NCBI GenBank assembly: GCA_963762255.1
Contig: CAVXKA010000001.1
Coordinates: forward strand, 128,001-192,000
Length of the DNA stretch: 64,000 bases
Reading direction: 5' to 3'
Origin: Candidatus Eiseniibacteriota bacterium
GTDB taxonomy: Bacteria > Eisenbacteria > RBG-16-71-46 > JABDJR01
Shown here: positions 1,053 through 23,917 of the stretch, in pieces
Numbering within the stretch: the first letter of the stretch is position 1
Layout of the letters: every line of letters begins with the position of its first letter
The notes under the pieces: model-generated
What the model was told of the DNA's origin: nothing
What the model saw: the letters and a program-made list of their open reading frames with translations, nothing else
Databases searched by the model: none
Translations under genes and position numbers: made by a program

Positions 1053-1063
1053 GCTGAGTCGGC

Positions 1064-4389: not shown

Positions 4390-5316
4390 TCACACAGGTG
4401 GAATCTGCGGCCTCTCGTAGGCGATATCGTAGACAAGAGCGGCCGGTTCCTTCCCGGCCGGGGCCGGAAGTGTTGTGATGTACTGGAACTTGACACCGTT
4501 GGTCAATGTGACGGCGGCAGCGGCTATGCTCGCGGTCTTGAGACCACCCGTGACGTTGATCAAGATACCGGAATCATGAGTGCCATACTTTGAACGTTCG
4601 TGCTGAATCAGATCCTCGATCGCGCTCTTCACCTCCCCAAACAGTTCGAACTCGACCGCGCGTGTGGCTTTGATGAGCTCGACCCCCGGAAGAAATCGCC
4701 CGAGCAGCTTCACGCAGAGATCCAATTCGCCCCAAGATCCCGGATCCCCACCAAGACGATCGGCTGACCCCACGAGGTAGATTCGCCGGACGACTCCCTG
4801 GTGATGACTGACGGCTCTCAGAAGCTGGAGCCAGTTCCATCTCTTGTCGGCAGATTCCAGAGCAACCCTGGGGATTGACGCATCCAGCGAACGGAATTCC
4901 AGCGGGATGCGGCGCGATCCATCGATGAGGAGTTCTCCGTCGCCGCTCTCCGGCACATCCTTGAGCAAGAGAGGCTTCTGCGGGGACACCAGGAGGATAA
5001 GCACCTTGTGGGGCCATACGTGAAGCGGGGACAGACTCTTCGGCAGCACAAAGGAACTCCGCATCAGGTACAGCATCACAATGAATGCAAGAAACACCAG
5101 GCAGAGCGCGATAGCTAGCAGTACGCGCACCGCGGGGCTGTCCAGGAATGGCCACCATGTGGCGAAGGGGATGTTCCCAATGGCATTTGCTGCCAAGCTT
5201 CCCGAGAGGACGACGCCCACGGCGAGCAGAATCGCCCTCTTGGGGATTACCCTCAATTCGCGGAATCTGGCCCCTACTTCCATGCTGGTTTTCCCCCGAC
5301 CGGATCCTACCAACAC
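4390..5316 (-). CDS. Cam1-like 2TM-CARF membrane effector of type III CRISPR
   Basis: Two N-terminal TM helices, then CARF motifs 'KVLILLVS' and 'INVTGGLKTASIAAA...FQYI'; no nuclease domain. Last gene of the Cas10 operon. The start may be the ATG at 5283. Confidence 0.75.
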   Translation of the reverse strand: MLVGSGRGKTSMEVGARFRELRVIPKRAILLAVGVVLSGSLAANAIGNIPFATWWPFLDSPAVRVLLAIALCLVFLAFIVMLYLMRSSFVLPKSLSPLHVWPHKVLILLVSPQKPLLLKDVPESGDGELLIDGSRRIPLEFRSLDASIPRVALESADKRWNWLQLLRAVSHHQGVVRRIYLVGSADRLGGDPGSWGELDLCVKLLGRFLPGVELIKATRAVEFELFGEVKSAIEDLIQHERSKYGTHDSGILINVTGGLKTASIAAAAVTLTNGVKFQYITTLPAPAGKEPAALVYDIAYERPQIPPV

Positions 5317-5446
5317 TCCTCCACGAGCGGTAATTCTGTCACGACCTTACGGGCATTCAGGCTTTCATCTTCGCGGTGCCGCGACTGCGACACATCTATG
5401 GCGGGAGCGAGATCATCACCTCACTCACGTCCGGTCTCGAGTGCCC

Positions 5447-7858
5447 TTAGCCGTGCCAGGAAATCGGCCGCCTCTCTTGCGCTCCGGTCGACCCCACCGA
5501 ACGTCCCTGTCTCTTCTGGGCTACCCGGCGAAGCAGGGCGTCCCGATCACGCGCCCATTTCTTCAGGGCCTTGGAGTCGGATTCCTGCGGCTTCCGTGCC
5601 TCGTGGCCCGCAAGCTCTGCTTCGGCCGCAGTGACCTCGGAACCGCCACTCTTGGCCGCCCTTGTCTCGAGCAGTTTGACCGGCTCCGGGAAGAGGGCCA
5701 GCACGGCGCTCGCCCATTCCTTGGGCCTGGAAGCCATGGACGGAGGGACCTCCCGACAGTTGCGAAGAAGGTAGTTGGCCTGTTCTGCAACCGGCCGATC
5801 GAGAACGGCCCCGAGAATCCCCCTGACGATGTCGAGTGGATCCTGTGGAGGAGGTGGGGGCGGTGGCGGCGGCGGTGACCCACCTCGGGCTTGCGGACCT
5901 GTCCCCACACCAGATACGGGCCGCGAGACCAGCGGCCCCCCGGGCCTTGAGGGTGCCCCTGCAGCGCGGATCCTGCGACCGGGCATCCGGGTGATGTATC
6001 GAGGAAGCACCGCAAGGTCCCTCTTGGCTTCCGTGAATTCCTTATGTTGCAACACCATGTACGTGAGGCGATCCGCAACCGCGTTCGAGGGGTCGGCCAT
6101 GCCAAGAAGTTGGACGAGTTGCTCCGACTCCGCCCAGCCTGGCACGCGATTCTCCATGTATGCCTCAAAACCCTTGCGAGCGTCCTGTAGAGATATTGAC
6201 TTTCCGTCCGCAAGTCGGACCAACCTACATCCTTGCTCGTGCAGCTTCACTGCGCCGAAGCCGAACGGCTTGGCCAACCCTAGCGCATGACAACAGGCTT
6301 CACGGCCACCGAAATCCAGCGCCCAAGCTAGCGCGCCGAACTCGACCTCTCTCAAGTTGTGGACACGGATGCGGCCCCGGAACCGCGTCCCTGCCGGCAG
6401 TGCTCTCCACTGAGTCGCCACGCTGGCATTGCCCTGGACGGGAGACTCATTGCTAGGCCTCACGGGATAGCGCTTCCAGCCGCGCAAACGGACGTTTTCA
6501 TCCATGAGCGTGGCGTAGCCTCTATCCTTCCGGACCTTCGGGTTCTCCCCCCCCGCCTGGGGATCTAACCGGTCGGATTGCTCGATGTAGGCCGGATAAA
6601 ATGTCGGTTTGGGGCCGTTCAGGATCGCCCCGCTGTCCCGCAACTGGTACTGACCCTCGGCGGCAGTGAACAACCCGATGTGGACCCGCCCCCGTGCCGA
6701 CATGGCCCCCGCGGCATGGGACCGCGAGTAGCCGAAGATTGCGTCCGCCAAGTCCATCACCGGGCTTCCTGCTTCAGGAGACCCCGTGGCCGGATCAGGA
6801 TTGTGCAATAGGCAGGAGTTGTCGATCGCATCACCGAGAGTGTGTCGGTAAGCAAGACGGAACATCTGGGTGAGCCCGATGCAATCAATCACCCTCGGAT
6901 CTCGCTCTGACCTCAGGAAGAAGATCGGAACCCTGTCACCACCTTCCAGGCGGGCCCTCCAGAACCCCCACTCGTCGTTGGGCCGCGCCTCGCCTCCATG
7001 ACGTTCACCTTGCTCCAGACTATGATTGAGTTCAAAATCGTGCCGCACCCGATCATCGATAGCCACGGCGGCACCCTTGGATCCATAGAACACGAACTCC
7101 CTGTGCTTCCCCTTGTTCTCTCCCCCGGGGAGGAGCCGCGCGTTTGGACTCGGTTGTCCAGTGAATACCAGGGTTCCATCGACATCGCCCGCTCGAAGGT
7201 CGGCAAGGCTGAAGCGGAGATGCCCCCGGCCGTTGCTCATCCGGTGGTCGATCACTGCGCCGGGACAAAACTGGATTTCCAGGGGTTGCCCGCTCTGCGC
7301 CCAGGCGCCGTACTTGTCTTGGAGTGACGACCGATTGATGAAGCACCTGCGGAGGGCCGCGGCATCCTCGCCCAGATACCCGAGCAGGTCGGCCTGCTCG
7401 ACGCGACTCACCTCGCACGGTTGAATGAACCAATCCCCATTACGTTCCTGGAGCCACCCGGGCTCTGCCCGTGGCTCATAGACTTCATTACCCACGGTCT
7501 TCGTCATGCGCGAGATGTAGAGTTGCCTGTTCTGCAGATCCCGCACGGCGTAGCGGCGGGAACGATCCACGAACTGGAACTTGCTGAACGTAATGATTTC
7601 AAGCACGTTCCGAAGCATCCCCTTGACCGAACTCCCCGGAATGGCGTACCTGCCATCTGGAGTTCTGAAGGGCGTGACGCGATCCCCTTCCCGCCCTCCG
7701 CCAACACAAATGGCCGTGGTCGCCTCCAGATCGATCTCGATCTCGCCGCAGATTCCGTCGGAGAAGGGAACGTCCTGGCTGATCAGGGGTGCCCATTCCG
7801 GGGTTACGACAACCTCGTTGAGAGGCACGAAGTTGTAGGGAGCGTGAACCTGACTCAT
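5447..7858 (-). CDS. cas7: Type III-D Cas7 with large insertion (TIGR03986-type RAMP) plus C-terminal extension
   Basis: Starts 'MSQVHAPYNFVPL'; has 'IPGSSVKGMLRNVLE', 'LRGWKRYP' and G-rich loop 'LGLAKPFGFG'. The ATG at 7858 overlaps the csx19 stop. Confidence 0.9.
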   Translation of the reverse strand: MSQVHAPYNFVPLNEVVVTPEWAPLISQDVPFSDGICGEIEIDLEATTAICVGGGREGDRVTPFRTPDGRYAIPGSSVKGMLRNVLEIITFSKFQFVDRSRRYAVRDLQNRQLYISRMTKTVGNEVYEPRAEPGWLQERNGDWFIQPCEVSRVEQADLLGYLGEDAAALRRCFINRSSLQDKYGAWAQSGQPLEIQFCPGAVIDHRMSNGRGHLRFSLADLRAGDVDGTLVFTGQPSPNARLLPGGENKGKHREFVFYGSKGAAVAIDDRVRHDFELNHSLEQGERHGGEARPNDEWGFWRARLEGGDRVPIFFLRSERDPRVIDCIGLTQMFRLAYRHTLGDAIDNSCLLHNPDPATGSPEAGSPVMDLADAIFGYSRSHAAGAMSARGRVHIGLFTAAEGQYQLRDSGAILNGPKPTFYPAYIEQSDRLDPQAGGENPKVRKDRGYATLMDENVRLRGWKRYPVRPSNESPVQGNASVATQWRALPAGTRFRGRIRVHNLREVEFGALAWALDFGGREACCHALGLAKPFGFGAVKLHEQGCRLVRLADGKSISLQDARKGFEAYMENRVPGWAESEQLVQLLGMADPSNAVADRLTYMVLQHKEFTEAKRDLAVLPRYITRMPGRRIRAAGAPSRPGGPLVSRPVSGVGTGPQARGGSPPPPPPPPPPQDPLDIVRGILGAVLDRPVAEQANYLLRNCREVPPSMASRPKEWASAVLALFPEPVKLLETRAAKSGGSEVTAAEAELAGHEARKPQESDSKALKKWARDRDALLRRVAQKRQGRSVGSTGAQERRPISWHG

Positions 7859-8250
7859 CGCGACTCTCCCGCGTTGACAAAACCGGCGAAACGGGCGACA
7901 GCAGGCCACAGCACCGTGCGACCTGGTGGGTCCTGCTGTGGCAGCCAACCCACTTCGTACTTGGCTTTCACCTGTGGCTCGCCCTGAACGAACATCTCGC
8001 GGAATGTCCCGATGGAGACTGGGTCCTCGGAACGCGCTAGCCGCCGCAGGATCCACTGGAAGCCACCAAGATGACGAAGATGGAGGGAACTCCCGTCGCT
8101 GCAGAGCCATTCCCCTGCCAGTGGGGTTCCAGCGCGCCTACTGATGACTGTCGGGGTCCTCATTGTCACCAACTCATCCGAGACGCATAGCCACCCGACC
8201 ACGGCGGGGAGTTTCTCCAGTTTCTTCCATACATCATCGACGGTCGCCAA
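7855..8250 (-). CDS. csx19: Csx19 (type III-D signature protein); true start uncertain
   Basis: Lies between double Cas7 and Cas7-insertion; C-terminal 'YEVGW...ARFAGF' motif. May begin at the ATG at 8338 across a G10 run. Confidence 0.75.
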   Translation of the reverse strand: MATVDDVWKKLEKLPAVVGWLCVSDELVTMRTPTVISRRAGTPLAGEWLCSDGSSLHLRHLGGFQWILRRLARSEDPVSIGTFREMFVQGEPQVKAKYEVGWLPQQDPPGRTVLWPAVARFAGFVNAGESR

Positions 8251-8327
8251 TCTCTCGACTCCGGTTTCGTCGATGCGAAAGCGAGCGCCCCCCCCCCGCC
8301 AGTATCAGCACCTGACCAACCTGCGCC

Positions 8328-9791
8328 TCACTTAGCATTGCCGTCTGCCCCCATTGAACTCCGCCAGAGCGCCTCGAAAGAGGACGACCCGACAAGATGG
8401 AATACCCCGTGTCCCCGACCATACCCGGCTCCGATCTGGACCCTGCCTTCGCAGAGATCTCGGAGTGCCTCGCGAAAGGCGTCTCGGGCAATCGAGTCGA
8501 CCCTGTCGAGATCCTCGACAAGGAGTCGAAGGACCACCTGCGGTCCCTTGAAGAGCACGCGTTCCGAGAACAGGACGCCGGCCCGCGCTCCGCCAGTGAA
8601 GCGGTCGATGCTCACGTGGTCGAGCCGTGCCGTTGGACGCGGACCATCCATATCCAGCCACGCATCGTCAATAAAGACTTTGCCAGCACAGCCCTCTCCG
8701 GCCCCCTCGTCTGCCTGTCCGTGCAGAGTCCCGAAGAGAGCCTGGACCGAAGGGTTCCTGCTCCCCGTCCATTGCTCCAGGTCCTGCACGCTCTCTGCCT
8801 GATCGGCGTACCGTCCGCGCAAGCGGTTGTCGTGGAAGGCCACCCGGTGCGCCAGGGCCCCCTTGACCGACGACCCTGGAATGAACATCGCCTGCTCACA
8901 CACCACGGCGATGTCGGCGTCCCAGCGGATCCGCTCCTCCCGGACCGGGTTGAAGTCCGGGCTCCTTTCGTCCTCGTGTTCGACCCAAGGCTCGGTTCCG
9001 TTGAAGCCCCAGAACCCTTCTGCCTCAAGCGACAGAGCCAGTGCCCGAAGGGCCGCTGGGGGTGGGCCCAGGGACAATTCCAGTGGCTCAAGGTAGCGGG
9101 CTTCGACATCCAGTCTGGCGCTGTGGCCCATGTACGCGTTTGGAGCATGGCCCGAGGCATGGTCAAACTTGCCGTATAGGCACTTCACGACCGCAAAGCT
9201 ACCCAACCCTCTTCGGCCGGCGCCTCCCACACGCATCCACCCCCCAGCGAGATGCCGCAAGATCCACAGAAAATCCGACTCGTCTTCGGGTCGGTCATCA
9301 CCGGCTTCCAGATGAAGCTCAAAGGTGAACCGGTGGCCCGCAGGCACGAGAGCCTGATCGAACTTTCCCCTACTGTCCGCGGCACCCCGGTGCGAGATTC
9401 GGACATGATCCCGAACGGTCATCCCCATGGCGTTAGCGAGGACAGGATCAGCGTTCCACACTCCAACCCGCAAGCCATCAACAGGGCGGTTTCTGGAATC
9501 GTGGATATGTGCCCAGGTGACCCACAGCCTGGAACCCTCCCCCAGCCCGTTCTCTGCATCATCTGATCCGCCGAACAACTGGGTGGTCCTGGCGGACCCA
9601 TGCTCACGCTCAAAGGCATGACGGATCATGCCAGTCAGGGATGTGCCCGGTATCACTGGCAGGTCGTTAGCATCGAGCACTGGGCCAGTGTCGGCGAGGA
9701 GCAGTCGCCCTGAGGATCCTACGAGAAACGGCGTCCGGAACTCGATGGTCACTCGGGCTATTCGACGGAACAGGATGGTCCCTGTGCTCAT
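8328..9791 (-). CDS. cas7: Double RAMP Cas7-Cas7 (Csm3-like) protein
   Basis: Two RAMP units: 'IPGTSLTGMIRH...VGGAGRRGLG' and 'IPGSSVKGALAHR...IGAGYGRGHG'. Confidence 0.88.
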   Translation of the reverse strand: MSTGTILFRRIARVTIEFRTPFLVGSSGRLLLADTGPVLDANDLPVIPGTSLTGMIRHAFEREHGSARTTQLFGGSDDAENGLGEGSRLWVTWAHIHDSRNRPVDGLRVGVWNADPVLANAMGMTVRDHVRISHRGAADSRGKFDQALVPAGHRFTFELHLEAGDDRPEDESDFLWILRHLAGGWMRVGGAGRRGLGSFAVVKCLYGKFDHASGHAPNAYMGHSARLDVEARYLEPLELSLGPPPAALRALALSLEAEGFWGFNGTEPWVEHEDERSPDFNPVREERIRWDADIAVVCEQAMFIPGSSVKGALAHRVAFHDNRLRGRYADQAESVQDLEQWTGSRNPSVQALFGTLHGQADEGAGEGCAGKVFIDDAWLDMDGPRPTARLDHVSIDRFTGGARAGVLFSERVLFKGPQVVLRLLVEDLDRVDSIARDAFREALRDLCEGRVQIGAGYGRGHGVFHLVGSSSFEALWRSSMGADGNAK

Positions 9792-11314
9792 GCCTGCACT
9801 CCTTCCCTGAGCCTGGACTGTCGCCGGGCGACCAAGTGCGCCGTCAGATGCAGGCAGAGCTTCTTCTCAGCTTCGCCGACCTCCTGGGGCGTGGCTTCAA
9901 GGAACCACTCATAGAGTGGTTTGCCAGATATCGCCGTTCTCCACGTGTTGGCACCCACCCCACCTGTTCCCGCCTCGACCCCGAAGTGCTCTTGGCGTAG
10001 GGTCTGCTCAAGCTCTGCAAACGAGACCGCTCCGCTTCGGCACGCCAAGGCGCATGCCTGGGCCACGGCATTCCACTGTGACCGGGATGGCACCGGGTCC
10101 CGCTTCCGCCGCGCGCGCCCCAGTCGGGTCGACAACTCTCGTGCCGATACCTCCGCTTGGAGAACGACCCTTTCCTCCGCGACAACTTGACGACTTTGCT
10201 CCAGGATCCAGTCTGCGAGAGGGGATTCTGGTTTCTGGCCAACGGGCACCTGCTGCTCGGCAGAGTACTCTCTGAACTCTGGATGCAGGGTGGCCAGGAA
10301 CCAGGGTTCGACTACCACTTGGCCGAGACCCTCCTGCCGGAAGAGCCCCACTCCGGATTCCAGTGCCACCTCAAGCGCCTGAACGTCCACCTTCGTCGCT
10401 CCCGCGAAAGTCAGCGTGCTACCCCGTTCCAGAACGCGTCGCTCAAGGTCTCTCGAGCGCCTCTTCCCGTTGTAGGGCACGAATCGCCGGACGGACCATG
10501 CCGATTTCGGGACAACCAATTTCCAGTCCTCAGGGAATCCGAAATGTGCCGGGTGCGGTATCTGAGCCGGTTCCCCGGACAACGGGTCGGCAAGCGCGGT
10601 GTCGGAGTTCAGCACGAGGGTCACGGTGGTTGCGGAGTGCGACCGCGAGGGCTTCACAGCCGCGGTATCCACAAGCATGGTGCGAATCCTGCCGTACTCT
10701 GCCGATCGGGAACGTCCAATCCAGAAGGTCCCACGGGCCAACTCCTCCTGAAGGCGTGCGTCGACATCCGGGCTCACGTCATCGTCTAACTGAATGTGCG
10801 AACGCCAGGACGAACCTGCCGCGAGAGACTCGTATCCAAAAAGGCTGCCTTCTGCCGGTGCACCGCGCCGATCGCGGGACACCGCTGTCTTGAGGCGATA
10901 CTCCCGATCAACGCCAATCACCCTGCCGTCCGCCCTGAAATATCCCTCTTCCATCCGGCGACAGCGCTGCTGCCTTCGCAGGTCATCTTCCAGGTGATTC
11001 AGGCAGTAAATGTTGGCGGAGACATACCTCGAGTCCTGCACGACGGAGGTGTTCGCCACCCGCAACCAGCCCAGGGGAACCAGGTGGGCGCCCCCCGCAG
11101 GCGATATGGGCAGCGCGTCGAGAAAGCGCACCTGGCCACTGTGGAACGTCACAAATGCGTGAAGCCCCAGCTTCTGGTAGAGCCTTGCCGCGAATGCCCC
11201 CAGGAAGTTGGAGCCGCGCAGATACGTGAGGCTTTGGTGCACGCCGAGAGATGCTGCGTTCACGGTCTGGATGACACCCGATTCGAGAAAGACGTCATAG
11301 GCGATGATTCTCAT
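9788..11314 (-). CDS. csx10: Cas5-group RAMP (Csx10-like) with C-terminal helical domain, probably fused Cas11
   Basis: Motifs 'YLRGSNFLGAFA', 'IGRSRSAEYG', 'GVGLFRQEGLG'; C-terminal region 'PSRSQWNAV' resembles the small subunit. Confidence 0.8.
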   Translation of the reverse strand: MRIIAYDVFLESGVIQTVNAASLGVHQSLTYLRGSNFLGAFAARLYQKLGLHAFVTFHSGQVRFLDALPISPAGGAHLVPLGWLRVANTSVVQDSRYVSANIYCLNHLEDDLRRQQRCRRMEEGYFRADGRVIGVDREYRLKTAVSRDRRGAPAEGSLFGYESLAAGSSWRSHIQLDDDVSPDVDARLQEELARGTFWIGRSRSAEYGRIRTMLVDTAAVKPSRSHSATTVTLVLNSDTALADPLSGEPAQIPHPAHFGFPEDWKLVVPKSAWSVRRFVPYNGKRRSRDLERRVLERGSTLTFAGATKVDVQALEVALESGVGLFRQEGLGQVVVEPWFLATLHPEFREYSAEQQVPVGQKPESPLADWILEQSRQVVAEERVVLQAEVSARELSTRLGRARRKRDPVPSRSQWNAVAQACALACRSGAVSFAELEQTLRQEHFGVEAGTGGVGANTWRTAISGKPLYEWFLEATPQEVGEAEKKLCLHLTAHLVARRQSRLREGVQA

Positions 11315-11874
11315 ACCTCCACCTCCCCGAGCTTCATCGCTACCCTTCCAAGCCCCCGACGCCGTCCGCTACCCAGACCTCGAACGAAGCACAGACCCGC
11401 GCGTAGCGCCTCTTCAGCTCCACCGGGATCCCCCAGGGCGTGAACGCGAGCAGTGAGCGTGACCGGGATCGAGACCTCCACGAAACGCAGTGTCTCGTCT
11501 GCCGCCTGTCCAGTACGGCCTTCTATCGCGGTCATTCCTAGGCGCCTGAACAGCACCTCGCAGCGCGCCTCCGGATCGGTGGCGACCCACGCCTCCAACT
11601 CCTTACCCAGTGTCGCGTCCGAGAAGCGAAGGCTTCCCTCCTGCTGGGGCTTGCCAAACAACCGGGCGACCGTTCCCGCGGGCACGGCATGGTGTCCGGC
11701 TTCCTCAGCCTGGTGCACTCCCTCTCGCACGAGTCCCCGGAGTGTCTTCCCAGGCAGATATGGCAACCCGGCCGGCGTCTTTACCGGTTCCGAGTCAACG
11801 ACAGGACCTCGGCTCCGGCCGCTTCCCGCGTGCCAGTACTCAAGAATCTCGACCGTCAGGCTCCATTCCCTCAT
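11311..11874 (-). CDS. cas7: Cas7/RAMP (Csm3-like) protein
   Basis: Motifs 'WHAGSG', 'LPYLPGKTLRGLVRE', 'LGSGRRRGLG'. Confidence 0.88.
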   Translation of the reverse strand: MREWSLTVEILEYWHAGSGRSRGPVVDSEPVKTPAGLPYLPGKTLRGLVREGVHQAEEAGHHAVPAGTVARLFGKPQQEGSLRFSDATLGKELEAWVATDPEARCEVLFRRLGMTAIEGRTGQAADETLRFVEVSIPVTLTARVHALGDPGGAEEALRAGLCFVRGLGSGRRRGLGRVAMKLGEVEV

Positions 11875-13508
11875 GCCTTACCCCCACGCTTAGGGCGCTC
11901 CATCAGGCGCACTACATAGGCATCCGCAAGAGGACTACGGATCACACCGTCCGCACCCGGGGCAGTCCAGATTGCTCTCCTGGCATTGGTCAGAGTCTCC
12001 AGAGCTTCCTCGAATTCCTGAAGGCCGGGACCGGCTTTGGGAGACTCAGTTTCCGCGCGCCCCTGCGTCACCTCGAGGATCCGAGCGAAGTCCTCGGTTG
12101 CGGCGACCGGGGAGTCGTGCATGACTTGTAGCAGGGTGCGAACCCGGCCCAATAGTTCAGTCGGAACTGCGTGCGCAAGAGTCCTCAGCGCGGCCAAGCT
12201 GGGCAATCGGTCGGCAGCCGGCCGGGCACCCACCCCGTAGGCCTCCATCGTGAGACGGTAGCCATCCCGGCTCAATTCGCGCCCGACCACTGACTCGGCG
12301 TCGATGGGCAGACTACCGGTGATTCTGAGGAAGGACAGGCCGGAGGGCGGCAACCCTGGATCCACCGACTTGACGTGACGCTTGGCCAGTTCGCACAGTG
12401 AGAAGGCAAGGTCATGGGCACGATCGAACGGGAACCCCGGCTTGACAAAGGCAACGCCGGCACAGGCGCTCAGACCCTCACGAATGCCCAGTTCCGGTTG
12501 TGCGAATCGCTCGGCTGTGAACCTTTCGAAATGAGTCAGAAAGGTTTCTGCGTAGCGCAGCCCAAGACGGCAATTGAGGAGGATCGTCAGATCATCACCG
12601 CCAAGGACAATGGGTCGGGCCGGGAAGACAAGTCGCTCATCATCCCCTCTGGGGTGAGAAATCGCAGCGGGGACCAGCACTTCCCTCGCTGCCTCTTCCG
12701 CCGCACGACGGGTGGCCTCTGTCAGCGCATCTGAAAACGCTGCGAATCGTCCCGCTGAGGCCGCTCCGTCCGTTGCTCCAAGAAGGGCTTGAATCGTCTT
12801 TCCGACATCGTTGCCATCGGCGTGAACAAGCGCGATATAGGGTTCATCCTGATCTGCAAGGAGTCCTTCTTCCGTCTCGGCACCGCTAGCGAAACGGTAC
12901 TTCGAGGTCAGTTCGCCCAGGAACCGGCGATCCAGGGAACTGGTGTCCCGAATCCCGGCACGGGCGAGCTCGTCCCTTGCTCTCTCTTTGGCCCAACTTG
13001 TCCGGTCTATTCGGAGGCGCTCCCCCGCTATCGAGATCTCGAATTCGACCGGCATCGAGGTCTGCGGATCGCGCTCCACAATGGGAGAGGGAACCGGCAG
13101 ATCCTCTACTGCCCATGCCCGCGACGCCTGCAACTCCTCTGCGAGGCGCCGCATGGCCTCGCCAAGTCCCCGCTCGTCCACCACCACGAGCGCCTGTTCG
13201 AGGAGGGCGCCCGGAGCGCGAGCTTCCACGATGAACGGCCAGACCTCATACAGGAATGCAAGCGCGTCCGCGTTCCTGGTCATGAGACGCACACCGGCGG
13301 CTGCGTGACTCAGGATGGTCACCTCGGAATCACGCATCCCCGAGGCGGCCAGGGCCCTCTTGAACGTGGCATCACAGAGATCCTCGAGAAGCTGGGATCC
13401 GCCTTGGACCTCGCGGAGGCGGGGACGGGTCAGGAGGTAGCGTTGAACTCTAGCGATCGAAAATCCGTAGAGCCACTGCCCCTGGGAAACAACCGATGCA
13501 GGTTCCAT
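11871..13508 (-). CDS. cas10: Cas10 lacking HD domain, with intact Palm2 cyclase motif
   Basis: 545 aa with 'ALVHADGNDVG', 'PIVLGGDDL' and 'SACAGVAFVKPGFPF'; no N-terminal HD domain. Confidence 0.92.
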   Translation of the reverse strand: MEPASVVSQGQWLYGFSIARVQRYLLTRPRLREVQGGSQLLEDLCDATFKRALAASGMRDSEVTILSHAAAGVRLMTRNADALAFLYEVWPFIVEARAPGALLEQALVVVDERGLGEAMRRLAEELQASRAWAVEDLPVPSPIVERDPQTSMPVEFEISIAGERLRIDRTSWAKERARDELARAGIRDTSSLDRRFLGELTSKYRFASGAETEEGLLADQDEPYIALVHADGNDVGKTIQALLGATDGAASAGRFAAFSDALTEATRRAAEEAAREVLVPAAISHPRGDDERLVFPARPIVLGGDDLTILLNCRLGLRYAETFLTHFERFTAERFAQPELGIREGLSACAGVAFVKPGFPFDRAHDLAFSLCELAKRHVKSVDPGLPPSGLSFLRITGSLPIDAESVVGRELSRDGYRLTMEAYGVGARPAADRLPSLAALRTLAHAVPTELLGRVRTLLQVMHDSPVAATEDFARILEVTQGRAETESPKAGPGLQEFEEALETLTNARRAIWTAPGADGVIRSPLADAYVVRLMERPKRGGKA

Positions 13509-13762
13509 GACATGCCCTCGACCCCCGGGATTTCCCCAGGGAATGGACGTTCTGCTTCCTGGAACTCCTTGACCGAGGGCCGAGGGAAGCGGAATGGTCG
13601 GTTGGGGGGGGCCGACAGGTGCAGAGCGCAGTCTAGGTCAGAGAGCGATCGAGTCCAATACCGAATTTCTGCGGGCGCACGGCACAGATACGAATACGAA
13701 TCATCCATAATATGGACTTGCATACATGGCCCATTTGTGTCTCGTCACGAGAGGAAGTGATG

Positions 13763-16700: not shown

Positions 16701-17178
16701 GCCAGTCTCAATCCCCACGGCTCGGGGCAGTAATCGGAACAGATGGTGAGGCGTTCGGTAGTCGCCTCGCTTCTCAGTCTCAATCCCCACGGCTCGGGGC
16801 AGTAATCGGAACTAAACAACGTATTAGGATTACTAGATTGTTCTTGCGGAAGTCTCAATCCCCACGGCTCGGGGCAGTAATCGGAACCGGCCAACCTCCT
16901 CCCCGACGGCAGGCCCGGATCCGGTCTCAATCCCCACGGCTCGGGGCAGTAATCGGAACGATCGTGATCTGGTTCGGATTGGGGCTCATCGTTCTGTCTC
17001 AATCCCCACGGCTCGGGGCAGTAATCGGAACGTGGAGATTCCCATCACGATTGGCGCGTGGGAGATCGGTCTCAATCCCCACGGCTCGGGGCAGTAATCG
17101 GAACCAGCTGCTGTTCGGTCTGTCCCTGGGTGCGTCCGATCTGTCTCAATCCCCACGGCTCGGGGCAGTAATCGGAAC
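13763..17178 (-). CRISPR. CRISPR array 1: about 47 repeats of 36 bp (GTTCCGATTACTGCCCCGAGCCGTGGGGATTGAGAC on - strand) and about 46 spacers of roughly 35-41 bp
   Basis: Repeats counted by eye. The degenerate repeat at 13763-13798 marks the trailer end. The CCCC/GGGG stem and ATTGAGAC 3' end on the - strand give the orientation. Confidence 0.98.
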
Positions 17179-17300
17179 GGTACGCCCGTAACCCCTTGTC
17201 TGACAAGGGCTCTGATGGTGGTTTCCGCCGACCTCGGTCGAACCACCCCGAAACTTCGCGTGGCGCAAGAAACGCATTCGATAACCTCTTGTCTCACAAC
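17179..17300 (-). promoter_or_regulatory. Leader of CRISPR array 1
   Basis: Adjacent to the non-degenerate end and similar to the sequence right of array 2 (gtaacc.ctt..c...caagg..tctg...tttccgccgac). Perfect inverted repeat cccttgtc-t-gacaaggg at 17193-17209. The far boundary is approximate. Confidence 0.7.
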
Positions 17301-17622
17301 ATCCGCCGGCCGCGACCGACGCCCGGCGACCGAATCGCCACGGAGCTATGCAGTTGTGCCAGTCCATCGCGTCCCCCGCCTCCACCTCACCCGACCGGCG
17401 GAGGCCCCTGCACGGCCTTCCGACAGCCCCACCGCCGCCTTCCCCGCTCGCAGAAGTATGTGGCCATCCGTCATCGAATTCTGTTGCCATGGAAAGTTCA
17501 AGGGTCTATAGAAAGAACTGTTCGATCATCTTCCGGCCCTATCCCCTGTGGCATCCCGAAGATGGTAGCGCAATCCGCGTCTGAAAGACGTGCTGCAAAC
17601 TGTCCCCACTGGAGGATCGGCG

Positions 17623-19731
17623 ATGGGAGAACTCTTCGAGAAGGTCACCTCACCCCTGATTCTCGCAGAGGGGTTCGATCGAGTCGAGGAGAACCACGGT
17701 TCTCCGGGAACCGACGGGCAGACGATCGAGGTGTTCGCCGCGAACCTCGACTTGAACCTCTCGCTGCTGCAATCAGAGTTGCGCTCGGAGCAGTACCGCC
17801 CGCGACCTCTCCTGCGCGTCGGCATTCCCAAGGAGACCGGCGGCACGCGATACCTCTCGATCCCCACCGTGCGGGATCGCGTGGCACAGAGCGCCGTCTA
17901 TCTCGTTCTGGCCCCCCTGCTCGAACCTGAATTCGAGGATGCGAGCTTTGCCTACCGTCCCGGACGGTCGGTCGATCAGGCCATCCAGCGCGTCCTCTCC
18001 TTGCGGAACGCGGGATTCACGTGGCTCCTCGACGCCGACATCTTTCACTTCTTCGACGAGATCCCGCACGATCGGCTATTCGCACTCCTGGAGCGGTTCG
18101 TGCCCGACGAGAAGATCACGGATCTACTGAAGCAATGGACCGCATGCGAGATCTGGTTCGAGGGCAAGACCTACCGCATGGTCAAGGGCATTCCCCAGGG
18201 TTCGCCGCTGTCCCCTGTCATGGCTAACCTCTATCTCGATCGACTGGACGAGGCTTTTCTCGAGACCCAGCATCGGATCGTTCGCTTCGCGGATGACTTC
18301 ATCGTGCTGTGCCGGAACCGGTCGGACGCGGAGGGAGCACAGGCGCTCTCGACCCGAATCCTCTCGGAGCTTGGCCTTCAACTCCACCCCGAGAAGACAC
18401 GGGTCACGAGCTTCGAGCAGGGGTTTCGTTATCTTGGCGTTCAGTTCCTTCGCTCGTTCGCCTTCAGGCCGATCGAGGCCCCCGAACCTAGCGAGGGCTC
18501 CACCGCGGCGGCGATAAGGTCGACCGAGCCTCTCGTGCCGGCGCTCCCCCCACCCAAGTCGAAGACAACGGTAGGGGGGGCATTTCGCGCGGCCCTGGAG
18601 GGACTCCCCCCGGGTGAGGCGGCGCACCGCTGGTCGGACCTGCATGTGTCCACGGGGTCGGCGCCTTCTGATGAGTCGGCCGTCTCGCCAGATCTTCCAA
18701 CACCGACAGCCGGTCATGACCCGACGCTTCGGACTCTCTACCTCATGGAACAGGGGGCCGAACTCGGCAAGGAAGACGAGCGATTCGTGGTCCGCAAGGA
18801 GGGCCGAATTCTCGCCAAGGTCCCCGCACTCAAGGTGAATCAGATCCTGGTATTCGGCAACATCCGCCTATCCACGCCGTCGGTCCAGTTCTGCCTTGTG
18901 CGGGACATCCCGATCTACCTGCTTTCGAGCCGCGGACGCTACTACGGCGTCATCGAATCGACTCAGGGGAACCGCGTCATGCTTCATGGGGCCCAATTCA
19001 ATCGGGCCGGCGACGACGGATTCCGATTGACGGTTTCCAGAGGGTTCGTGAAGGGGAAGATCGCGAATTGTCGAACCGTCCTGCAGCGACACGCTCGTTC
19101 CCGCAGCGAAACCGGGCTCCAGGAGTCCCTGGGCCGGATGAAGGAGATGCTCGACGGCCTGGACAGGGCGGAGACGCTGGATCAGCTTCGCGGAATGGAA
19201 GGGGCTGCGGCGGCATCCTACTTCTCGGCGCTCTCCGGACTGCTAGGGCCGGAATGGGGATTTTCGCGGCGAGAGCGCCAGCCGCCGACCGATCCCGTCA
19301 ATAGCATGTTGTCCTTCGGTTACACGCTCCTCTTCTACAACGTCTATTCGCTCTTGCGCGCCGCCGGGCTTCATCCCTATGTCGGCATCTATCACTCCCT
19401 GAGGGATAACCACCCCGCCCTGGTTTCGGACCTGATGGAGGAGTTTCGGGCACCTCTGGTCGACCGAACCGTGCTCAGTCTCATCGATCGCAAACAGGTG
19501 AAGCCCGGCGATTTCACGATCGGCACGGAGAAGGAGCCGGGGTGCTTTCTCTCCGAAGACGCTCGTCGCATCGTGGGAGCTGCCTTCGAAGAGGCGTTCA
19601 ACCGCTTGGTGACTCATCCGGACGCCGGGGAGAAATGTGACTACCGAAGGGTGATCTTCCTGCAGGCTTTGCGCGTCCAGGGAGCCATCGAAGCTCGAGA
19701 GCCGGCCTACGAGCCCTTCATCTTGAAGTGA
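17623..19731 (+). CDS. cas1: Reverse transcriptase-Cas1 fusion (RT-Cas1)
   Basis: Group II intron-type RT motifs 'RYLSIPTVRDRVAQ', 'GIPQGSPLSP', 'VRFADDF'; Cas1 motifs 'LRGMEGAAAASYF', 'DPVNSMLSFGY', 'ALVSDLMEEFR'. GGAGG precedes the ATG at 17623. Confidence 0.95.
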   Translation: MGELFEKVTSPLILAEGFDRVEENHGSPGTDGQTIEVFAANLDLNLSLLQSELRSEQYRPRPLLRVGIPKETGGTRYLSIPTVRDRVAQSAVYLVLAPLLEPEFEDASFAYRPGRSVDQAIQRVLSLRNAGFTWLLDADIFHFFDEIPHDRLFALLERFVPDEKITDLLKQWTACEIWFEGKTYRMVKGIPQGSPLSPVMANLYLDRLDEAFLETQHRIVRFADDFIVLCRNRSDAEGAQALSTRILSELGLQLHPEKTRVTSFEQGFRYLGVQFLRSFAFRPIEAPEPSEGSTAAAIRSTEPLVPALPPPKSKTTVGGAFRAALEGLPPGEAAHRWSDLHVSTGSAPSDESAVSPDLPTPTAGHDPTLRTLYLMEQGAELGKEDERFVVRKEGRILAKVPALKVNQILVFGNIRLSTPSVQFCLVRDIPIYLLSSRGRYYGVIESTQGNRVMLHGAQFNRAGDDGFRLTVSRGFVKGKIANCRTVLQRHARSRSETGLQESLGRMKEMLDGLDRAETLDQLRGMEGAAAASYFSALSGLLGPEWGFSRRERQPPTDPVNSMLSFGYTLLFYNVYSLLRAAGLHPYVGIYHSLRDNHPALVSDLMEEFRAPLVDRTVLSLIDRKQVKPGDFTIGTEKEPGCFLSEDARRIVGAAFEEAFNRLVTHPDAGEKCDYRRVIFLQALRVQGAIEAREPAYEPFILK

Positions 19732-19741
19732 GGACGCAAGG

Positions 19742-20053
19742 GTGTGCACTCTGCCCCAACCAGCCGCTTCGCCGCGACACGTGTGGGTCATCGCGTACGA
19801 CATCCGGGATGACAAGCGACGTGTTCGTGTGGCGAAGCATCTCTGTAGCTACGGGGAACGTGTTCAGCACAGCGTGTTCGAGAGCCGTCTGACTTCCGGG
19901 GAGGTTGCCTTGCTCCGCTCCGAACTCCGAGAGATCGTGGATCTCAAGGAGGACCAGCTTCGGTTCTACCCGCTGTGTCTGACCTGCGAGGCTCGGATCC
20001 GCCGGCAGGGCACCGCCACCACACTGGATGCGGATGGATACTCGATCATCTGA
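19742..20053 (+). CDS. cas2: Cas2
   Basis: 'VIAYDIRDDKRRVRVAK...GERVQHSVFE...DQLRFYPLC'. Confidence 0.93.
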   Translation: MCTLPQPAASPRHVWVIAYDIRDDKRRVRVAKHLCSYGERVQHSVFESRLTSGEVALLRSELREIVDLKEDQLRFYPLCLTCEARIRRQGTATTLDADGYSII

Positions 20054-20054
20054 C

Positions 20055-20331
20055 ATGTTCATCGTCGTCTCGTACGATGTCGCCGGCAGCAAGGCGCGCC
20101 GACGTGTGGCGTCCGAGTTGGAGAATTTCGGTATCAGGACCCAGTACAGCATCTTCGAGTGCCACCTGGACGATAAGCGGCTGGAGGACTTGGAAGGACG
20201 TTCTCGCTGAGCTGATTGACTGGGAGACCGATCGGGTGGCTTACTACAGTCTCTGCGCGGACGATGCCGGGCAAATCCTCACCGATGGGCCGGGCGCGGT
20301 GGCGGCGGACTCGGACTACCACATCATCTAA
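20055..20331 (+). pseudogene. cas2: Second cas2 interrupted by an apparent +1 frameshift near 20201
   Basis: 'MFIVVSYDV...RTQYSIFEC' stops at 20210; the continuation 'LAELIDWETDRVAYYSLC' is in another frame. Removing one T at 20201-20202 restores a full Cas2. Confidence 0.85.
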
Positions 20332-20343
20332 GGACGCTCGGAC

Positions 20344-21282
20344 ATGCGCCTCGCTGACAGGATCCGGCTCAACCTCGCGGACCTGGCGGTGCTTCCACGC
20401 CGGCTGGAGCTGAAGCTCGCTGAACCCTGCCCCGTTTCTGTTGCGTTGCTGCGCGGTGTCTGGGGAGCCGCGCTCCACGAATCAGCGGGAGAGGTCTATC
20501 GCGAAGTATTCGAGGGCGAAGGATCCGCGCATCTTCGGACCCCCCAGTACGTGCTCAGGCTGGCCCAGCCCCCGGGAACCTCCACGGTTACCCTTGAATG
20601 GGTGACCTTCGGATCTGCTTTGCGTTGCGGCGAGGCTCTAATTCAGGCTTGGCGGCTCGCGGGCGTCATGGGCCTGGGGTCTGAGCGCATTCCATTCCAG
20701 GTGCGTGAAGTCTTGGAATTGGGCCCGGGGGGCGCGCCGGCACCGGTGGGGACATGGCCGGAGGGTTGGCCCGTCTCACTTGACCGGAGCCCCGTGTCCG
20801 GTGTCGACGGGACGCTGCCTGTTCGCGTCGCCTTTCCGTCGGGGGTTCGCGTGATGAGGCGCCTAGCGGGAACTTCGCGCGCGGTTCTCACCGAGTCCCC
20901 TGGCCCCGCTGAGATCGCACTGGGAGCGCTCCGCAGGTTAGCCGCATGCATGCCCGAGGGCTCGGGCATCAACGATGGCCGCGGGCTGCTTGGCTTGCAC
21001 GACGATGTCCGCGACTACGCCCAGGGCGTGCCTCACCTTGGGTGGCAGGGACAGCGATCCGACTACTCCCGCTATTCCGCCCGTCAGCGCGACGAATACG
21101 AGATTCGCGCCGTGACTGGACATCTGGACCTGCCGAAGGGGAGCGGGGAAATCTGGCCGCTCATCGCCGCGGCGCAGTGGCTCCACATCGGCAAGGGTAC
21201 GACGCTCGGGCTGGGACAGCTTGTGATCCTGCCGCTTCCGGATCCGAGCACCTCGGACACAGGGGAGATCCCACAGCTATGA
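20344..21282 (+). CDS. cas6: Cas6 pre-crRNA processing endoribonuclease
   Basis: 'LLRGVWGAAL', 'RYSARQ' and C-terminal G-loop 'HIGKGTTLGLG'. Confidence 0.9.
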   Translation: MRLADRIRLNLADLAVLPRRLELKLAEPCPVSVALLRGVWGAALHESAGEVYREVFEGEGSAHLRTPQYVLRLAQPPGTSTVTLEWVTFGSALRCGEALIQAWRLAGVMGLGSERIPFQVREVLELGPGGAPAPVGTWPEGWPVSLDRSPVSGVDGTLPVRVAFPSGVRVMRRLAGTSRAVLTESPGPAEIALGALRRLAACMPEGSGINDGRGLLGLHDDVRDYAQGVPHLGWQGQRSDYSRYSARQRDEYEIRAVTGHLDLPKGSGEIWPLIAAAQWLHIGKGTTLGLGQLVILPLPDPSTSDTGEIPQL

Positions 21283-22745
21283 AGACGGCTACGCTGGACG
21301 CAGAACTTACGGCCATCGTCGAGAGATGGCGGACCGCAGACCGAAGAGAACAGGACATCATATATGCGAAAGAATTCGCTCCGGGATTCGTGCCTCTCTT
21401 CGCCCAACTTCCTCTGGCGGGAGCCCCGGAATCACTTGGGCGGCCAAAGGGCTTGGTCAGCGTACTTGGTCTATCGTGGCAGCCGGCAGCCTTGATGTCG
21501 GCATGGGCGCATCCAGAGCGGCTATTGGTCCTGGGGACCAAGGAGTCGTTCGCGGTCGAGGTCGCCGGGCGCCACGTCTTGGAGCTGATCCTTCAGTTCT
21601 CCGGTCTGTCGGCCGCAATGGTGGAGCATCGTGCGTTGGAGAGCGACGACGAGGCCGGAATCTACCGTGAAGTTCGCCAGTTCCTGGATCGCCACGGATA
21701 CCGGCCGCGCGAGGTATTCATCGACCCAACCGGTGGAAAGAAGTCGATGTCCGCCGCCGCCAGCCTCGCCGGGTACCTCAGCGGTTCCCCTCTGGTCTAC
21801 GTGGACTACGCCCAATACCAGGAACGAAATCGCATCCCGCTCGCGGGGTCGGAGTTCCCGCGACTGCTGGCGAACCCACTCGATGTCTTCGGCGACATTG
21901 AGAAGGGCCGAGTGTTCGACGCGTTCGATTCCGGTCACTTCGATGAGGCAGAGATCCGCGCCACCGAGTTGGCGGGGCACCTGTACGAACCTCGTCCTGC
22001 GGAGACGCTAGCCCGCGCGGCTGCGGGCTACGGCGCATGGGATGCGTTTCGTTTTCGCGATGCCCTGGCAACACTCAGAGAGGTGCAGGCATTGCTGTCG
22101 AAGCACGACCCCCAAGACCGATGGCACGAAGTCCAGGATATCCGGGAATTACTGCCCGCTCATCTCCAGCACCTGGAGGCGGTCTGTGCCGGCGGCGATA
22201 CGCCGGAGACTTGGCAGGCAGGACGGTGCGTTCTATTGAATCATCTTGCCGCGGCACGCCGCGCCCTGGCCTGGAAGCGGACGAGCGTCGCCGTACTCCT
22301 GCTCTACGCCACCATTGAACGGATGTTGAACCTCTACCTGCGAGCACACTTCGGGATGCGGATGGAGCAGCCGGACTTCACGGCGGTAGACGCGCTCATA
22401 GATCGCGCCGAGTATGAGAAGGCCGGAGCGCTTCTGGGGGAGTCATCTGCATGGCCTCCCCATGAGGGGCCTTTGATGTTCGCGAGTGGGTTGCGCCTTC
22501 TTGCCGGGTTGCGACCCGGCTTGCTGAGCGATAGCGACTTGAAGACGCTCCGGGATCTTGGCAATGTTCGCAATACCTGTGAGTTCGAACACGGTTTCAT
22601 GCCCCGGCCGCCTGACCGCAAACGTGTGGATGATCTCGCGAAGCGGGTTACTCGAATTCTGGAGCACGTCGACGACGCGTGGGGCGGTGAGGATGAACTG
22701 GCAAGATTGCGATTTCCGAGGCTTGTGCCCGGAGGGGCTTCGTAA
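21279..22745 (+). CDS. CARF-HEPN protein (TIGR02710-like), putative cOA-activated ribonuclease
   Basis: CARF motif 'IDPTGGKKSMS', then 'LLANPLDVFG' and C-terminal 'RNTCEFEHG' HEPN-like motif; ATGA overlap with cas6. Confidence 0.82.
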   Translation: MKTATLDAELTAIVERWRTADRREQDIIYAKEFAPGFVPLFAQLPLAGAPESLGRPKGLVSVLGLSWQPAALMSAWAHPERLLVLGTKESFAVEVAGRHVLELILQFSGLSAAMVEHRALESDDEAGIYREVRQFLDRHGYRPREVFIDPTGGKKSMSAAASLAGYLSGSPLVYVDYAQYQERNRIPLAGSEFPRLLANPLDVFGDIEKGRVFDAFDSGHFDEAEIRATELAGHLYEPRPAETLARAAAGYGAWDAFRFRDALATLREVQALLSKHDPQDRWHEVQDIRELLPAHLQHLEAVCAGGDTPETWQAGRCVLLNHLAAARRALAWKRTSVAVLLLYATIERMLNLYLRAHFGMRMEQPDFTAVDALIDRAEYEKAGALLGESSAWPPHEGPLMFASGLRLLAGLRPGLLSDSDLKTLRDLGNVRNTCEFEHGFMPRPPDRKRVDDLAKRVTRILEHVDDAWGGEDELARLRFPRLVPGGAS

Positions 22746-22918
22746 CAAGGCTTTCAGGAAAGCGCGCCTTCCTTCTGTCCGGCGTGTACCCCGGCGCGGC
22801 AGAACACCACGGGTGCGTAATCCCAGGTCTGCCGTCCGGCACACCATGACCCCACGCTAACGTCCCCACGCGGCAGCCGCGAGCCAGGATCCGAGAGAGG
22901 GGGAAGGCGTGATCAAGA

Positions 22919-23917
22919 GCCTCAATCCCCACTTCTTGGGGCGGTAATAGCAAGGACCGATCAAGTCGGGCGCTACCAGCTCGCATCTCAACCGTTCTCA
23001 ATCCCCACGTCTCGGGGCAGTAATCGCAAGGCTCGACCTCTGCATTACCGCCGAGTACTACCGAGAGTCTCAATCCCCACGGCTCGGGGCAGTAATCCCA
23101 AGTCGTCGTCACCTCAGTGGCGAAGACTTGTTTCCGGGTGTCTTAATCCCCACGTCTCGGGGCAGTTATCGCAAGTTGAAACCGGGGCACATCATCCAGG
23201 TCTCGAATGACATGTCTCAATCCCCACGTCTCGGGGCAGCTATCGCAAGCAGCGCGACGCTCGGCTTCATGGACAACACGCCGCGGGCGTCTCAATCCCC
23301 ACGCCTCGGGGCAGTAATCGCAAGGCCGCCGCGATGGTCGCCATCCAGTTCGCGGAGTCGATGTCTCAATCCCCACGTCTCCGGGCAGTAATCGCAAGTC
23401 TCCAGCGGTGACACGACCGATGGGACGCTTCGCTTGTCTCAATCCCCACGTCTCGGGGCAGTAATCGCGAGTCTGATTTCCATCGGCCTGTGCGCCTGCG
23501 CCGACAAGGTCTCAATCCCCACGTCTCGGGGCAGTAATCGCAAGTGGTTCCCCCTTCCGGGTTGGGACCGAATCCTAGCCCATCAAATGCAAGTCCCACC
23601 GGACTAAGAATCGGGGGGCATGTCAGCTTCGCCGAAGCGGCCTAATCCCACCCTGGGGATCAAGTCTCAATCCCCACGTCTCGGGGCAGTAATCGCAAGT
23701 ACATCAAGCAGAGAGTGTGTATCAAGTGGTAGGTGGTCTCAATCCCCACGTCTCGGGGCAGTAATCGCAAGCCTTTGTCACGTGGAAGACTGGGAACTCG
23801 CTCGTTAGGTCTCAATCCCCACGTCTCGGGGCAGGAATCGCAAGTCGCGCGGCCATCCGCGCCAAGATGGAGGGGGAATGAGTCTCAATCCCCACGTCTC
23901 GGGGCAGTAATCGCAAG
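22919..23917 (-). CRISPR. CRISPR array 2: about 14 repeats (CTTGCGATTACTGCCCCGAGACGTGGGGATTGAGAC on - strand)
   Basis: 36-bp repeats, more degenerate at the left end, with leader-like sequence on the right; one 119-bp spacer at 23545-23663. Confidence 0.96.

Follow-up and report, generated by a model that had tools for sequence, protein, structure and literature searches.

The window analysed here, a stretch of 64,000 nucleotides (nt) from the forward strand of contig CAVXKA010000001.1 of a Candidatus Eiseniibacteriota genome (GCA_963762255.1, contig positions 128,001 to 192,000), carries at its positions 4390-23917 what reads as a complete, apparently intact CRISPR-Cas locus of type III-D (Table 1). 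Combining the listing of open reading frames (ORFs) with three profile libraries, we find two blocks of genes on opposite strands. The minus strand encodes, in this order, Cas10, Cas7, Csx10, Cas7-2x, Csx19, Cas7-insertion and a membrane effector with two transmembrane (TM) helices and a CARF domain (2TM-CARF), and the plus strand encodes a reverse transcriptase (RT)-Cas1 fusion, Cas2, Cas6 and a CARF-HEPN ribonuclease (RNase) of the Csm6 type. The reading frame is open in each of the 11 cas and effector genes, and their overlaps are of the translationally coupled kind. The four features by which we assessed membership in type III-D, namely a III-D Cas10, csx10 as the cas5 variant of this subtype (PMC11026444), csx19 as a frequent member, and several Cas7 proteins of the Csm3 group including one of the TIGR03986 type, are all present, and the PADLOC III-D models for Cas10, Cas5 and Cas7 match with E-values of 1e-39 to 1e-122.

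A previous, sequence-only reading of this stretch had described a Cas10 with a GGDD motif but no HD domain, an RT-Cas1 fusion, a 2TM-CARF and a CARF-HEPN effector, and the absence of cas4. Every part that it named is present where it had been placed, and the analyses below uphold the assignment of each; likewise, no cas4 model matched any ORF of the locus in the NCBIfam and PADLOC scans. The gene list itself needs amending, as it missed the Csx19 gene, stopped short of the second leader and probably set two starts too far upstream. The Cas7-insertion gene most likely begins at 7858 rather than at 8110 (the longest frame, 887 amino acids (aa)), because family matches begin near residue 88, where a methionine overlaps the Csx19 stop by 4 nt. 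Similarly, the Csm6 gene most likely begins at 21279 rather than at 20946, since its family matches begin after a methionine that overlaps the cas6 stop by 4 nt.

Table 1 Features of the type III-D locus, in window coordinates; numbers after profile names are E-values.
Feature	Position	Strand	Size	Evidence and remarks
2TM-CARF effector	4390-5316	-	308 aa	PADLOC TM+CARF 2.6e-21, CARF8--CARF_TM 2.9e-16, 'CARF, 2 TMs' 2.1e-15
Cas7-insertion (TIGR03986 family)	5447-7858	-	803 aa from likely start	PADLOC Cas7_IIId 2.6e-122; best PDB sequence match 8S9T_E
Csx19	7855-8250	-	131 aa	PADLOC Csx19 3.9e-5, residues 5-124
Cas7-2x (two fused Cas7 domains)	8328-9791	-	487 aa	Pfam RAMPs 7.4e-34, 2 stretches; PADLOC Cas7_IIId 6.5e-97
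Csx10, Cas5-Cas11 fusion	9788-11314	-	508 aa	PADLOC Cas5_IIId 2.6e-52; AlphaFold2 and Foldseek
Stand-alone Cas7	11311-11874	-	187 aa	Pfam RAMPs 2.2e-12; PADLOC Cas7_IIId 1.1e-39
Cas10, HD-less, cyclase motif GGDD intact	11871-13508	-	545 aa	PADLOC Cas10d 8.9e-69; Pfam Cas10 palm-2
CRISPR array 1	13763-17178	-	47 repeats (36 nt), 46 spacers (35-41 nt)	Degenerate repeat at 13763 end
Array 1 leader, with the divergent control region that it shares with RT-Cas1	17179-17589	-		Homology to sequence beside array 2
RT-Cas1 fusion	17590-19731	+	713 aa from GTG start (database form 702 aa)	Pfam RVT_1 1.2e-38, Cas1 1.3e-93; PADLOC Cas1_IIIb 1.2e-115
Cas2	19742-20053	+	103 aa	Pfam CRISPR_Cas2 2.8e-21; TIGR01573 2.6e-13; 10 nt downstream of RT-Cas1
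Cas6	20344-21282	+	312 aa	PADLOC Cas6 1.7e-39; Pfam CRISPR_Cas6 8.7e-8
CARF-HEPN ribonuclease, Thermus Csm6 type	21279-22745	+	488 aa from likely start	PADLOC CARF1--CARF_HEPN 3.2e-52
CRISPR array 2	22919-23917	-	13 repeats (36 nt), 11 spacers (36-40 nt), one interval of 119 nt	Degenerate repeat at 22919 end
Leader of array 2	23918-24220 (end approximate)	-		Homology to leader 1

The Cas10 protein retains GGDD (residues 303-306) and HADGN (229-233), both invariant in all 20 sequences of an alignment that joins the window protein to 19 of the 34 homologues returned. It opens directly at the palm-1 motif, and the aligned proteins measure 516-586 aa and are without an extra N-terminal domain; palm-2 is the sole Pfam domain of the window protein, with no HD-domain family among the Pfam matches. 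A profile of the alignment matches the HD-less Cas10 of the Synechocystis III-Dv complex (8S9T_C) from chain residue 20 onwards (E 1.1e-51). A survey of 1113 type III loci puts the share of III-D systems with HD domains at 3% (PMC11229360); an HD-less Cas10 is the rule in III-D and not a peculiarity of this locus. Related loci were collected by a pattern scan with one genome per species, which yielded 463 confirmed Cas10 relatives, and GGDD was found in 76 of the best 80, which were kept. We also considered Ser17, at the palm-1 position where Lactococcus lactis Cas10 has D253 and III-D2 Cas10 has E8, as an unusual acceptor site. This candidate was set aside: the 80 related loci carry S (37), A (23), E (15), N (3), T (1) or K (1) at that position, so that serine, one of the two commonest states there together with alanine, marks nothing special.

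Three further subunits of the effector complex are best matched, among solved structures, by chains of the same Synechocystis complex 8S9T, as is Cas10: Cas7-2x (8S9T_D, 'Cas7-2x') and Cas7-insertion by sequence, and Csx10 by fold. Cas7-insertion scores 265.6 bits against TIGR03986 (1.6e-78; curated cut-off 161.35). Csx10 stays under the cut-off of the TIGR02674 Csx10 model (0.0015) and has no PDB match by sequence. Its AlphaFold2 (AF2) model, for which the window protein was aligned with Csx10 from 31 of the 74 related loci that have it, has a predicted local distance difference test (pLDDT) score of 86 and shows a RAMP fold (residues 1-340) followed by an all-helical domain (residues 365-507). 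The top Foldseek match of this model is 8S9T_A, the Cas7-Cas5-Cas11 chain (E 3.9e-22, 572 columns), followed by Cmr3 and Csm4. On this evidence Csx10 carries a fused C-terminal helical Cas11-like domain, with the first Cas7 staying a separate gene. That Cas7 and Csx10 lie in separate frames with a 4-nt overlap, and the stand-alone Cas7 has a second match in the fused Cas5_IIId model PDLC02089, at positions 1-203 out of 679. Csx19 is assigned with moderate confidence, because neither Pfam nor NCBIfam returned a match for it.

Cas7-insertion further bears a C-terminal extension (approximately residues 625-803, around 5447-5985), in which some 130 residues forming a domain come after a run of ten prolines. 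Pfam matched nothing in the extension at E<=1, the Atlas gave no usable match, and among 61 related Cas7-insertion matches only that of L003, the locus closest to ours, aligns beyond residue 647.

The III-Dv system of Synechocystis sp. PCC 6803 (8S9T-8S9X; PMC11026444) resembles the locus in its HD-less GGDD Cas10, Cas7-2x, Csx19 and Cas7-insertion, which stand in the same order, as well as in having a separate Cas6 and CARF-HEPN accessory proteins; its locus combines the same core with Csm6 and Csx1 (PMC11026444). It differs in joining Cas7, Cas5 and Cas11 in one chain, whereas here the 187-aa Cas7 is separate and only Cas5 and Cas11 are fused. The RT-Cas1 fusion, the 2TM-CARF effector and the C-terminal extension of Cas7-insertion also set our locus apart, identity is low, and the phmmer matches are partial. 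Thus, Cas7-2x and Cas7-insertion are both present, but the system is not III-Dv proper because the defining triple Cas7-Cas5-Cas11 fusion is absent. The III-D2 system (PMC13294483) differs in its Cas7x3, its Cas7-5 fusion and its CorA, none of which occurs in the window locus, and by its gene content the locus is not III-D2.

Searching the 80 related loci with the window proteins (tblastn) found Cas7 in 78, Csx10 in 74, Cas7-2x in 69 and Cas7-insertion in 61 of them, with Csx19 in 5 (at the same position), the RT domain in 9, Cas1 in 13, 2TM-CARF in 5 and Csm6 in 2, all of which are lower bounds, because contig ends cut many loci and tblastn is insensitive to proteins that are small or evolve fast. 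The order of the core genes is constant wherever tblastn found them. Cas7 and Csx10 form separate matches in the related loci, and 40 extracted Csx10 frames measure 474-547 aa. As the separate layout is detected in 74-78 of the 80 loci kept, the fused Synechocystis form looks derived.

The first of the two effectors, 2TM-CARF, is recognised by dedicated PADLOC models and has two hydrophobic segments in the hydropathy profile. Its AF2 model (pLDDT 89, from an alignment with 39 of the 150 matches listed) shows helices at residues 26-46 and 61-84, followed by an alpha/beta CARF domain. By sequence, no PDB chain matched at E<=1; by fold, the top Foldseek match is the CARF domain of Cam1 in 8T66/8T65, entries bound to cyclic tetra-adenylate (cA4) and cyclic hexa-adenylate (cA6) (E 1e-4, 13% identity, TM-score on target 0.58-0.68). 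The protein belongs to a family of 574 representative clusters at E<=0.001 (215 at E<=1e-10), whose profile gives weak matches to the canonical CARF proteins Crn1 and Card1.

Cam1, Cap1 and Chp1 are cA4-activated membrane depolarisers (Cam1: PMC10808066). Cam1 of Nitrosococcus halophilus, the top structural match, shares with the window protein its N-terminal membrane helices, its cytosolic domain sensing cyclic oligoadenylate (cOA) and its place in a type III locus. It is a 206-aa protein with a single TM helix and a conserved pore aspartate, whereas the window protein has two TM helices, 308 aa and asparagine. With two helices, no sequence match and asparagine at TM1 sites that are usually acidic (detailed below), the protein is, strictly speaking, no Cam1. 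Cap1 likewise has two TM helices, though with a CARF-like domain that is divergent, and Chp1 combines a HAD domain with four TM helices. As regards the Cap1 motif R-x3-QQ-x10-L, the family consensus contains R-W-N-W-Q-Q where the window protein has L-Q, a comparison made at the level of the motif; no Cap1 chain appeared among the PDB matches by sequence, profile or fold.

The second effector aligns over its full length with Thermus thermophilus Csm6 (TtCsm6, TTHB152; PDB 5FSH/8JBB, residues 9-463, E 2.1e-18), and stays under the cut-off of TIGR02710 (69.5 against 83.9 bits). It has the Csm6-type layout of CARF, helical and HEPN domains and an R-x4-6-H motif, whose R-N-x5-H spacing in the HEPN domain is that of R415/N416/H422 in TtCsm6; by analogy, it would be activated by cA4. 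In the CARF domain, motif II (T, G, K) is kept and motif I reads G-L-S, compared with G-T-S in TtCsm6. The equivalents of Y161, Y167, R172 and E179 of TtCsm6 are kept, while T59 is replaced by leucine, N164 by tyrosine and R173 by isoleucine. TtCsm6 serves type III-A/III-B systems. As an enzyme, it is a cA4-dependent, self-limiting RNase, which cleaves its own cA4 activator in the CARF domain (PMC10897365).

This relationship bears on the earlier statement that the locus has no obvious ring nuclease. The dedicated ring nuclease family PF08960 has no match in the genome (PF09620 (Csx3) has none either, an uninformative result, since its control was also silent). The statement is doubtful, because TtCsm6, the closest solved relative, itself cleaves cA4, and most of the residues involved are kept in the window protein. 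Csm6 may act as the locus's own off-switch, an assignment that we hold as uncertain.

The adaptation genes comprise the RT-Cas1 fusion, in which a group-II-intron-like RT domain (RVT_1) and Cas1 share a single frame, and an adjoining Cas2. No N-terminal Cas6 domain was detected in RT-Cas1 by Pfam or PADLOC, Cas6 being a gene of its own. We aligned the window protein with 31 hand-picked sequences out of 120 listed matches, and the RT residues D148, D150, R232, A234, D235 and D236, as well as the Cas1-domain residues E537, H602, H608, D614 and E617, are invariant in all 32. Both active sites are therefore intact on one polypeptide. A reading of FADD, in place of YADD, as the mark of a dead RT was ruled out, since F233 is the majority residue and hence normal for the clade, and A-D-D is invariant in 32 of 32. 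Relatives of the fusion number more than 1300 at E<=0.001 among 8000 candidates scored.

A comparable arrangement is described for the type III-D system of Vibrio vulnificus YJ016, where, according to PMC6821258, a cassette with csx19 and cas6 lies in an island, divergent from RT-Cas1/Cas2 flanked by two arrays. Cas2 is encoded twice there and the arrays are short, with 2 and 9 spacers; the likeness is drawn from the published description. The same paper (PMC6821258) reports RNA-derived acquisition by the Vibrio vulnificus RT-Cas1, shown with a td self-splicing intron junction assay, and refers to a Fusicatenibacter system that serves as a transcriptional recorder.

Both arrays are read as minus-strand units, since degenerate repeats lie at their low-coordinate ends, homologous leaders lie at their high-coordinate ends, and the repeats share an 8-nt end after a hairpin. 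Aligned locally, the two leaders score 60; 200 shuffles gave 19.8 +/- 2.6, with a maximum of 31, and the other ends of the arrays scored 16-17. On the minus strand, the repeat contains a 5-bp hairpin that ends 8 nt before its 3' end; the last 8 nt are identical between the arrays, and the array 2 repeat differs from that of array 1 at the low-coordinate end. The energies of the repeat hairpins are no better than those of shuffles. With leaders at the high-coordinate ends, the second runs past 23917, to about 24220.

The repeats of array 1 are nearly uniform, with 38 of 47 free of mismatches to the consensus and 7 carrying one. A two-spacer unit with its repeat occurs twice in this array (15710-15817 and 16299-16406), pointing to internal duplication or recombination between repeats. 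In array 2, a 119-nt interval (23545-23663) replaces one spacer and probably holds a decayed repeat, and the array looks older or less used because several of its repeats carry point changes.

Given this gene and domain content, the conserved catalytic residues, the polarity of the arrays and the distribution of the layout, we consider it likely that the locus encodes signalling-based III-D immunity. The homologous leaders would drive minus-strand transcription of both arrays, and Cas6 would cut at the base of the repeat hairpin, leaving an 8-nt 5' tag on the CRISPR RNA (crRNA). This crRNA would be held by a complex of Cas10, Cas7, Csx10 (as Cas5-Cas11), Cas7-2x, Csx19 and Cas7-insertion, which would bind complementary RNA. 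The GGDD cyclase would then make cOA, most likely cA4, and defence would rest on this cyclase, as Cas10 is without an HD nuclease. The signal would switch on both CARF effectors: the TtCsm6-type HEPN RNase, which probably degrades the signal too, and the membrane CARF protein with its two helices, whose probable effect is to perturb the membrane. New spacers would be added by RT-Cas1 together with Cas2, with RNA as a possible source. The sequence-only reading had suggested much the same function, with spacers from RNA, RNA targeting and signalling without DNA cutting. This is the standard reading of such a locus; it is plausible and fits the findings, the catalytic motifs being intact in Cas10, RT, Cas1 and the Csm6 HEPN domain.

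The source of the spacers is where one competing account lies, according to which the RT is accessory, spacers come essentially from DNA and the system is not a natural RNA recorder. RT-Cas1 systems acquire from DNA and RNA alike (PMC11014452), and the array 1 region (13763-17215, with its 46 spacers) had no match at E<=1 in a megablast search of phage and plasmid collections. The RT motifs are, however, invariant across the clade, and mutations of the RT active site lower acquisition in the characterised III-D system (PMC6821258). On balance, we regard an accessory RT as a tentative and rather less probable account of adaptation at this locus.

Several observations weigh against signalling immunity at work in this host, the first being that activity is read from the genes, with complex assembly, messenger identity, effector activities and RNA-derived acquisition taken by analogy with characterised systems. 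A look for sequencing runs covering window 13400-23000 listed no RNA run, and one DNA run with 0.07 of the sampled words, a result that is neutral as to expression. In TM1 of the membrane effector, residues 44 and 48 (window 5176-5187) are asparagine, at positions that are usually acidic in the family (of 40 sequences, 22 have D and 1 has E at residue 44, and 16 have E and 10 have D at residue 48). Cam1 needs its pore-lining aspartate (PMC10808066), and the asparagines may change or weaken pore function. In Csm6, the G-L-S of motif I and the tyrosine in place of the cleavage residue N164 make self-degradation of cA4 uncertain. Furthermore, GGDD alone does not fix the messenger, because the III-D2 Cas10, which has this motif, makes SAM-AMP and SAM-AMP2 rather than cOA (SAM, S-adenosylmethionine; AMP, adenosine monophosphate; PMC13294483).

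Lastly, one spacer matches the host itself. The spacer at 16888-16923, fourth from the array 1 leader, is identical over 36 of 36 nt to contig 2 of the same genome, at 876170-876205 (L002 9971-10006); when 57 spacers were compared with the whole genome, the next-best matches reached at most 25 nt. The 8-nt tag pairs with the flank of this match at 2 of 8 positions, so that a perfect self-match is combined with a non-complementary anti-tag. A fully active system could hardly tolerate such a match, provided that transcription of the site ran on the matching strand.

These features could mean that the locus is silenced, attenuated or partly disabled in its host and provides no current signalling defence, a reading for which the self-matching spacer near the leader, the lack of both common acidic residues in TM1, and the several variant repeats and decayed interval of array 2 all speak. 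Yet all 11 genes are open, with their coupled overlaps, and the catalytic residues are conserved; the array 1 repeats are nearly all of consensus type, which argues for recent use of this array; and the self-match falls in non-coding DNA. We therefore judge a disabled locus to be quite unlikely. Production of a messenger other than cOA, such as one of the SAM-AMP type for which the III-D2 GGDD enzyme is the precedent and the palm-1 serine might be invoked, is very improbable indeed, as Ser/Ala is the commonest palm-1 state among the 80 related loci, each of the two effectors is a CARF protein, cA4 is the ligand of the closest solved Csm6, and no CorA, NrN or SAM-lyase-type gene was found in the locus by the Pfam, NCBIfam and PADLOC scans.

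The self-protospacer lies between a patatin/POTRA/Omp85 gene on the minus strand and ctaA on the plus strand. The surrounding intergenic region of 445 bp (L002 9812-10256) is present in 5 of 12 relatives searched, from two genera of the family: identity is 82% within the host's own genus and 70-73% in the other; conservation runs in blocks, and the protospacer is among them. The region has no Rfam family at the gathering threshold, and its folds show no extra stability over shuffles (z-scores 0.33 and 0.23). The self-match region has no sigma-70-like promoter matches, and none of four candidate ORFs near it is conserved as a protein beyond the same genus. The region may be an uncharacterised leader or regulatory element. 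If the array is transcribed from the minus strand, the crRNA of the self-spacer would be antisense to RNA running into the patatin-like gene. One could suppose that the spacer is a trace of RT-Cas1 capturing a host RNA leader, with the system either tolerated there or its signalling coupled to that gene, an idea that we consider distinctly improbable. In any case, the spacer offers a concrete site at which to ask whether RT-Cas1 samples host RNA in nature.

The genome assembly (4.14 Mb in 3 contigs, 93.6% complete) contains one Cas1, one Cas10 palm-2 match and exactly two CARF matches, both of them in the locus, and no further copy of the CRISPR repeat elsewhere. The locus has a guanine-plus-cytosine content of 60-64%, compared with 66-70% in its flanks, and Cas10 was detected in only 1 of 40 other genomes of the same class, as a weak match (E 5.3e-7). 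The lower content and the near-absence of Cas10 from the class point to lateral acquisition. The system is sporadic in this lineage, and the locus adds one more complete HD-less, signalling-only III-D example with RT-Cas1.

Arginine-synthesis genes lie at one side of the locus and genes without a clear family assignment at the other; no tRNA genes were found at the island borders within window positions 1-30000. The three genes upstream of the locus (window 24-4356; 342, 699 and 398 aa) have no family match, except for a weak transglutaminase-like domain in the third.

The suggestion that the combination of parts may be undescribed is unsupported. An RT-Cas1/III-D system has been characterised (PMC6821258); absence of HD is usual; and the pairing of effectors is common. 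According to PMC11229360, membrane CARF effectors of the Cam1 type are accompanied by other effectors in about 50% of cases; it adds that Csx1 co-occurs with every other cA4 effector, and that the pairing of a membrane CARF protein with a Csx1/Csm6-type RNase is common. In addition, three related loci (L005, L011 and L036) have the same effector operon, in which a 2TM-CARF protein (PADLOC 1e-37 to 1e-41) comes directly after Cas7-insertion and is itself followed by an RT-Cas1 fusion (~1e-172). Each part and most pairings are thus already known from other bacteria, and the locus matters little as a discovery. Its value lies in being a compact set, with two cA4-type effectors and 58 spacers, for studying how an RNase and a membrane effector cooperate.

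The hosts of the related loci include Myxococcota, Desulfuromonadales and Geobacter, Bacteroidota, Calditrichia, Nitrospiraceae, Acidobacteriota, Gammaproteobacteria and others. The closest locus, L003, comes from a Myxococcota metagenome-assembled genome; its Cas10 is 41% identical to that of the window, and besides Cas6 it encodes a stand-alone RT, a CARF-HEPN protein and, upstream, a PrimPol. At L003 4851-6749, next to its III-D operon, a PrimPol-type 'adaptation polymerase' (PADLOC 8.7e-78) together with the stand-alone RT stands in place of the RT-Cas1 fusion.

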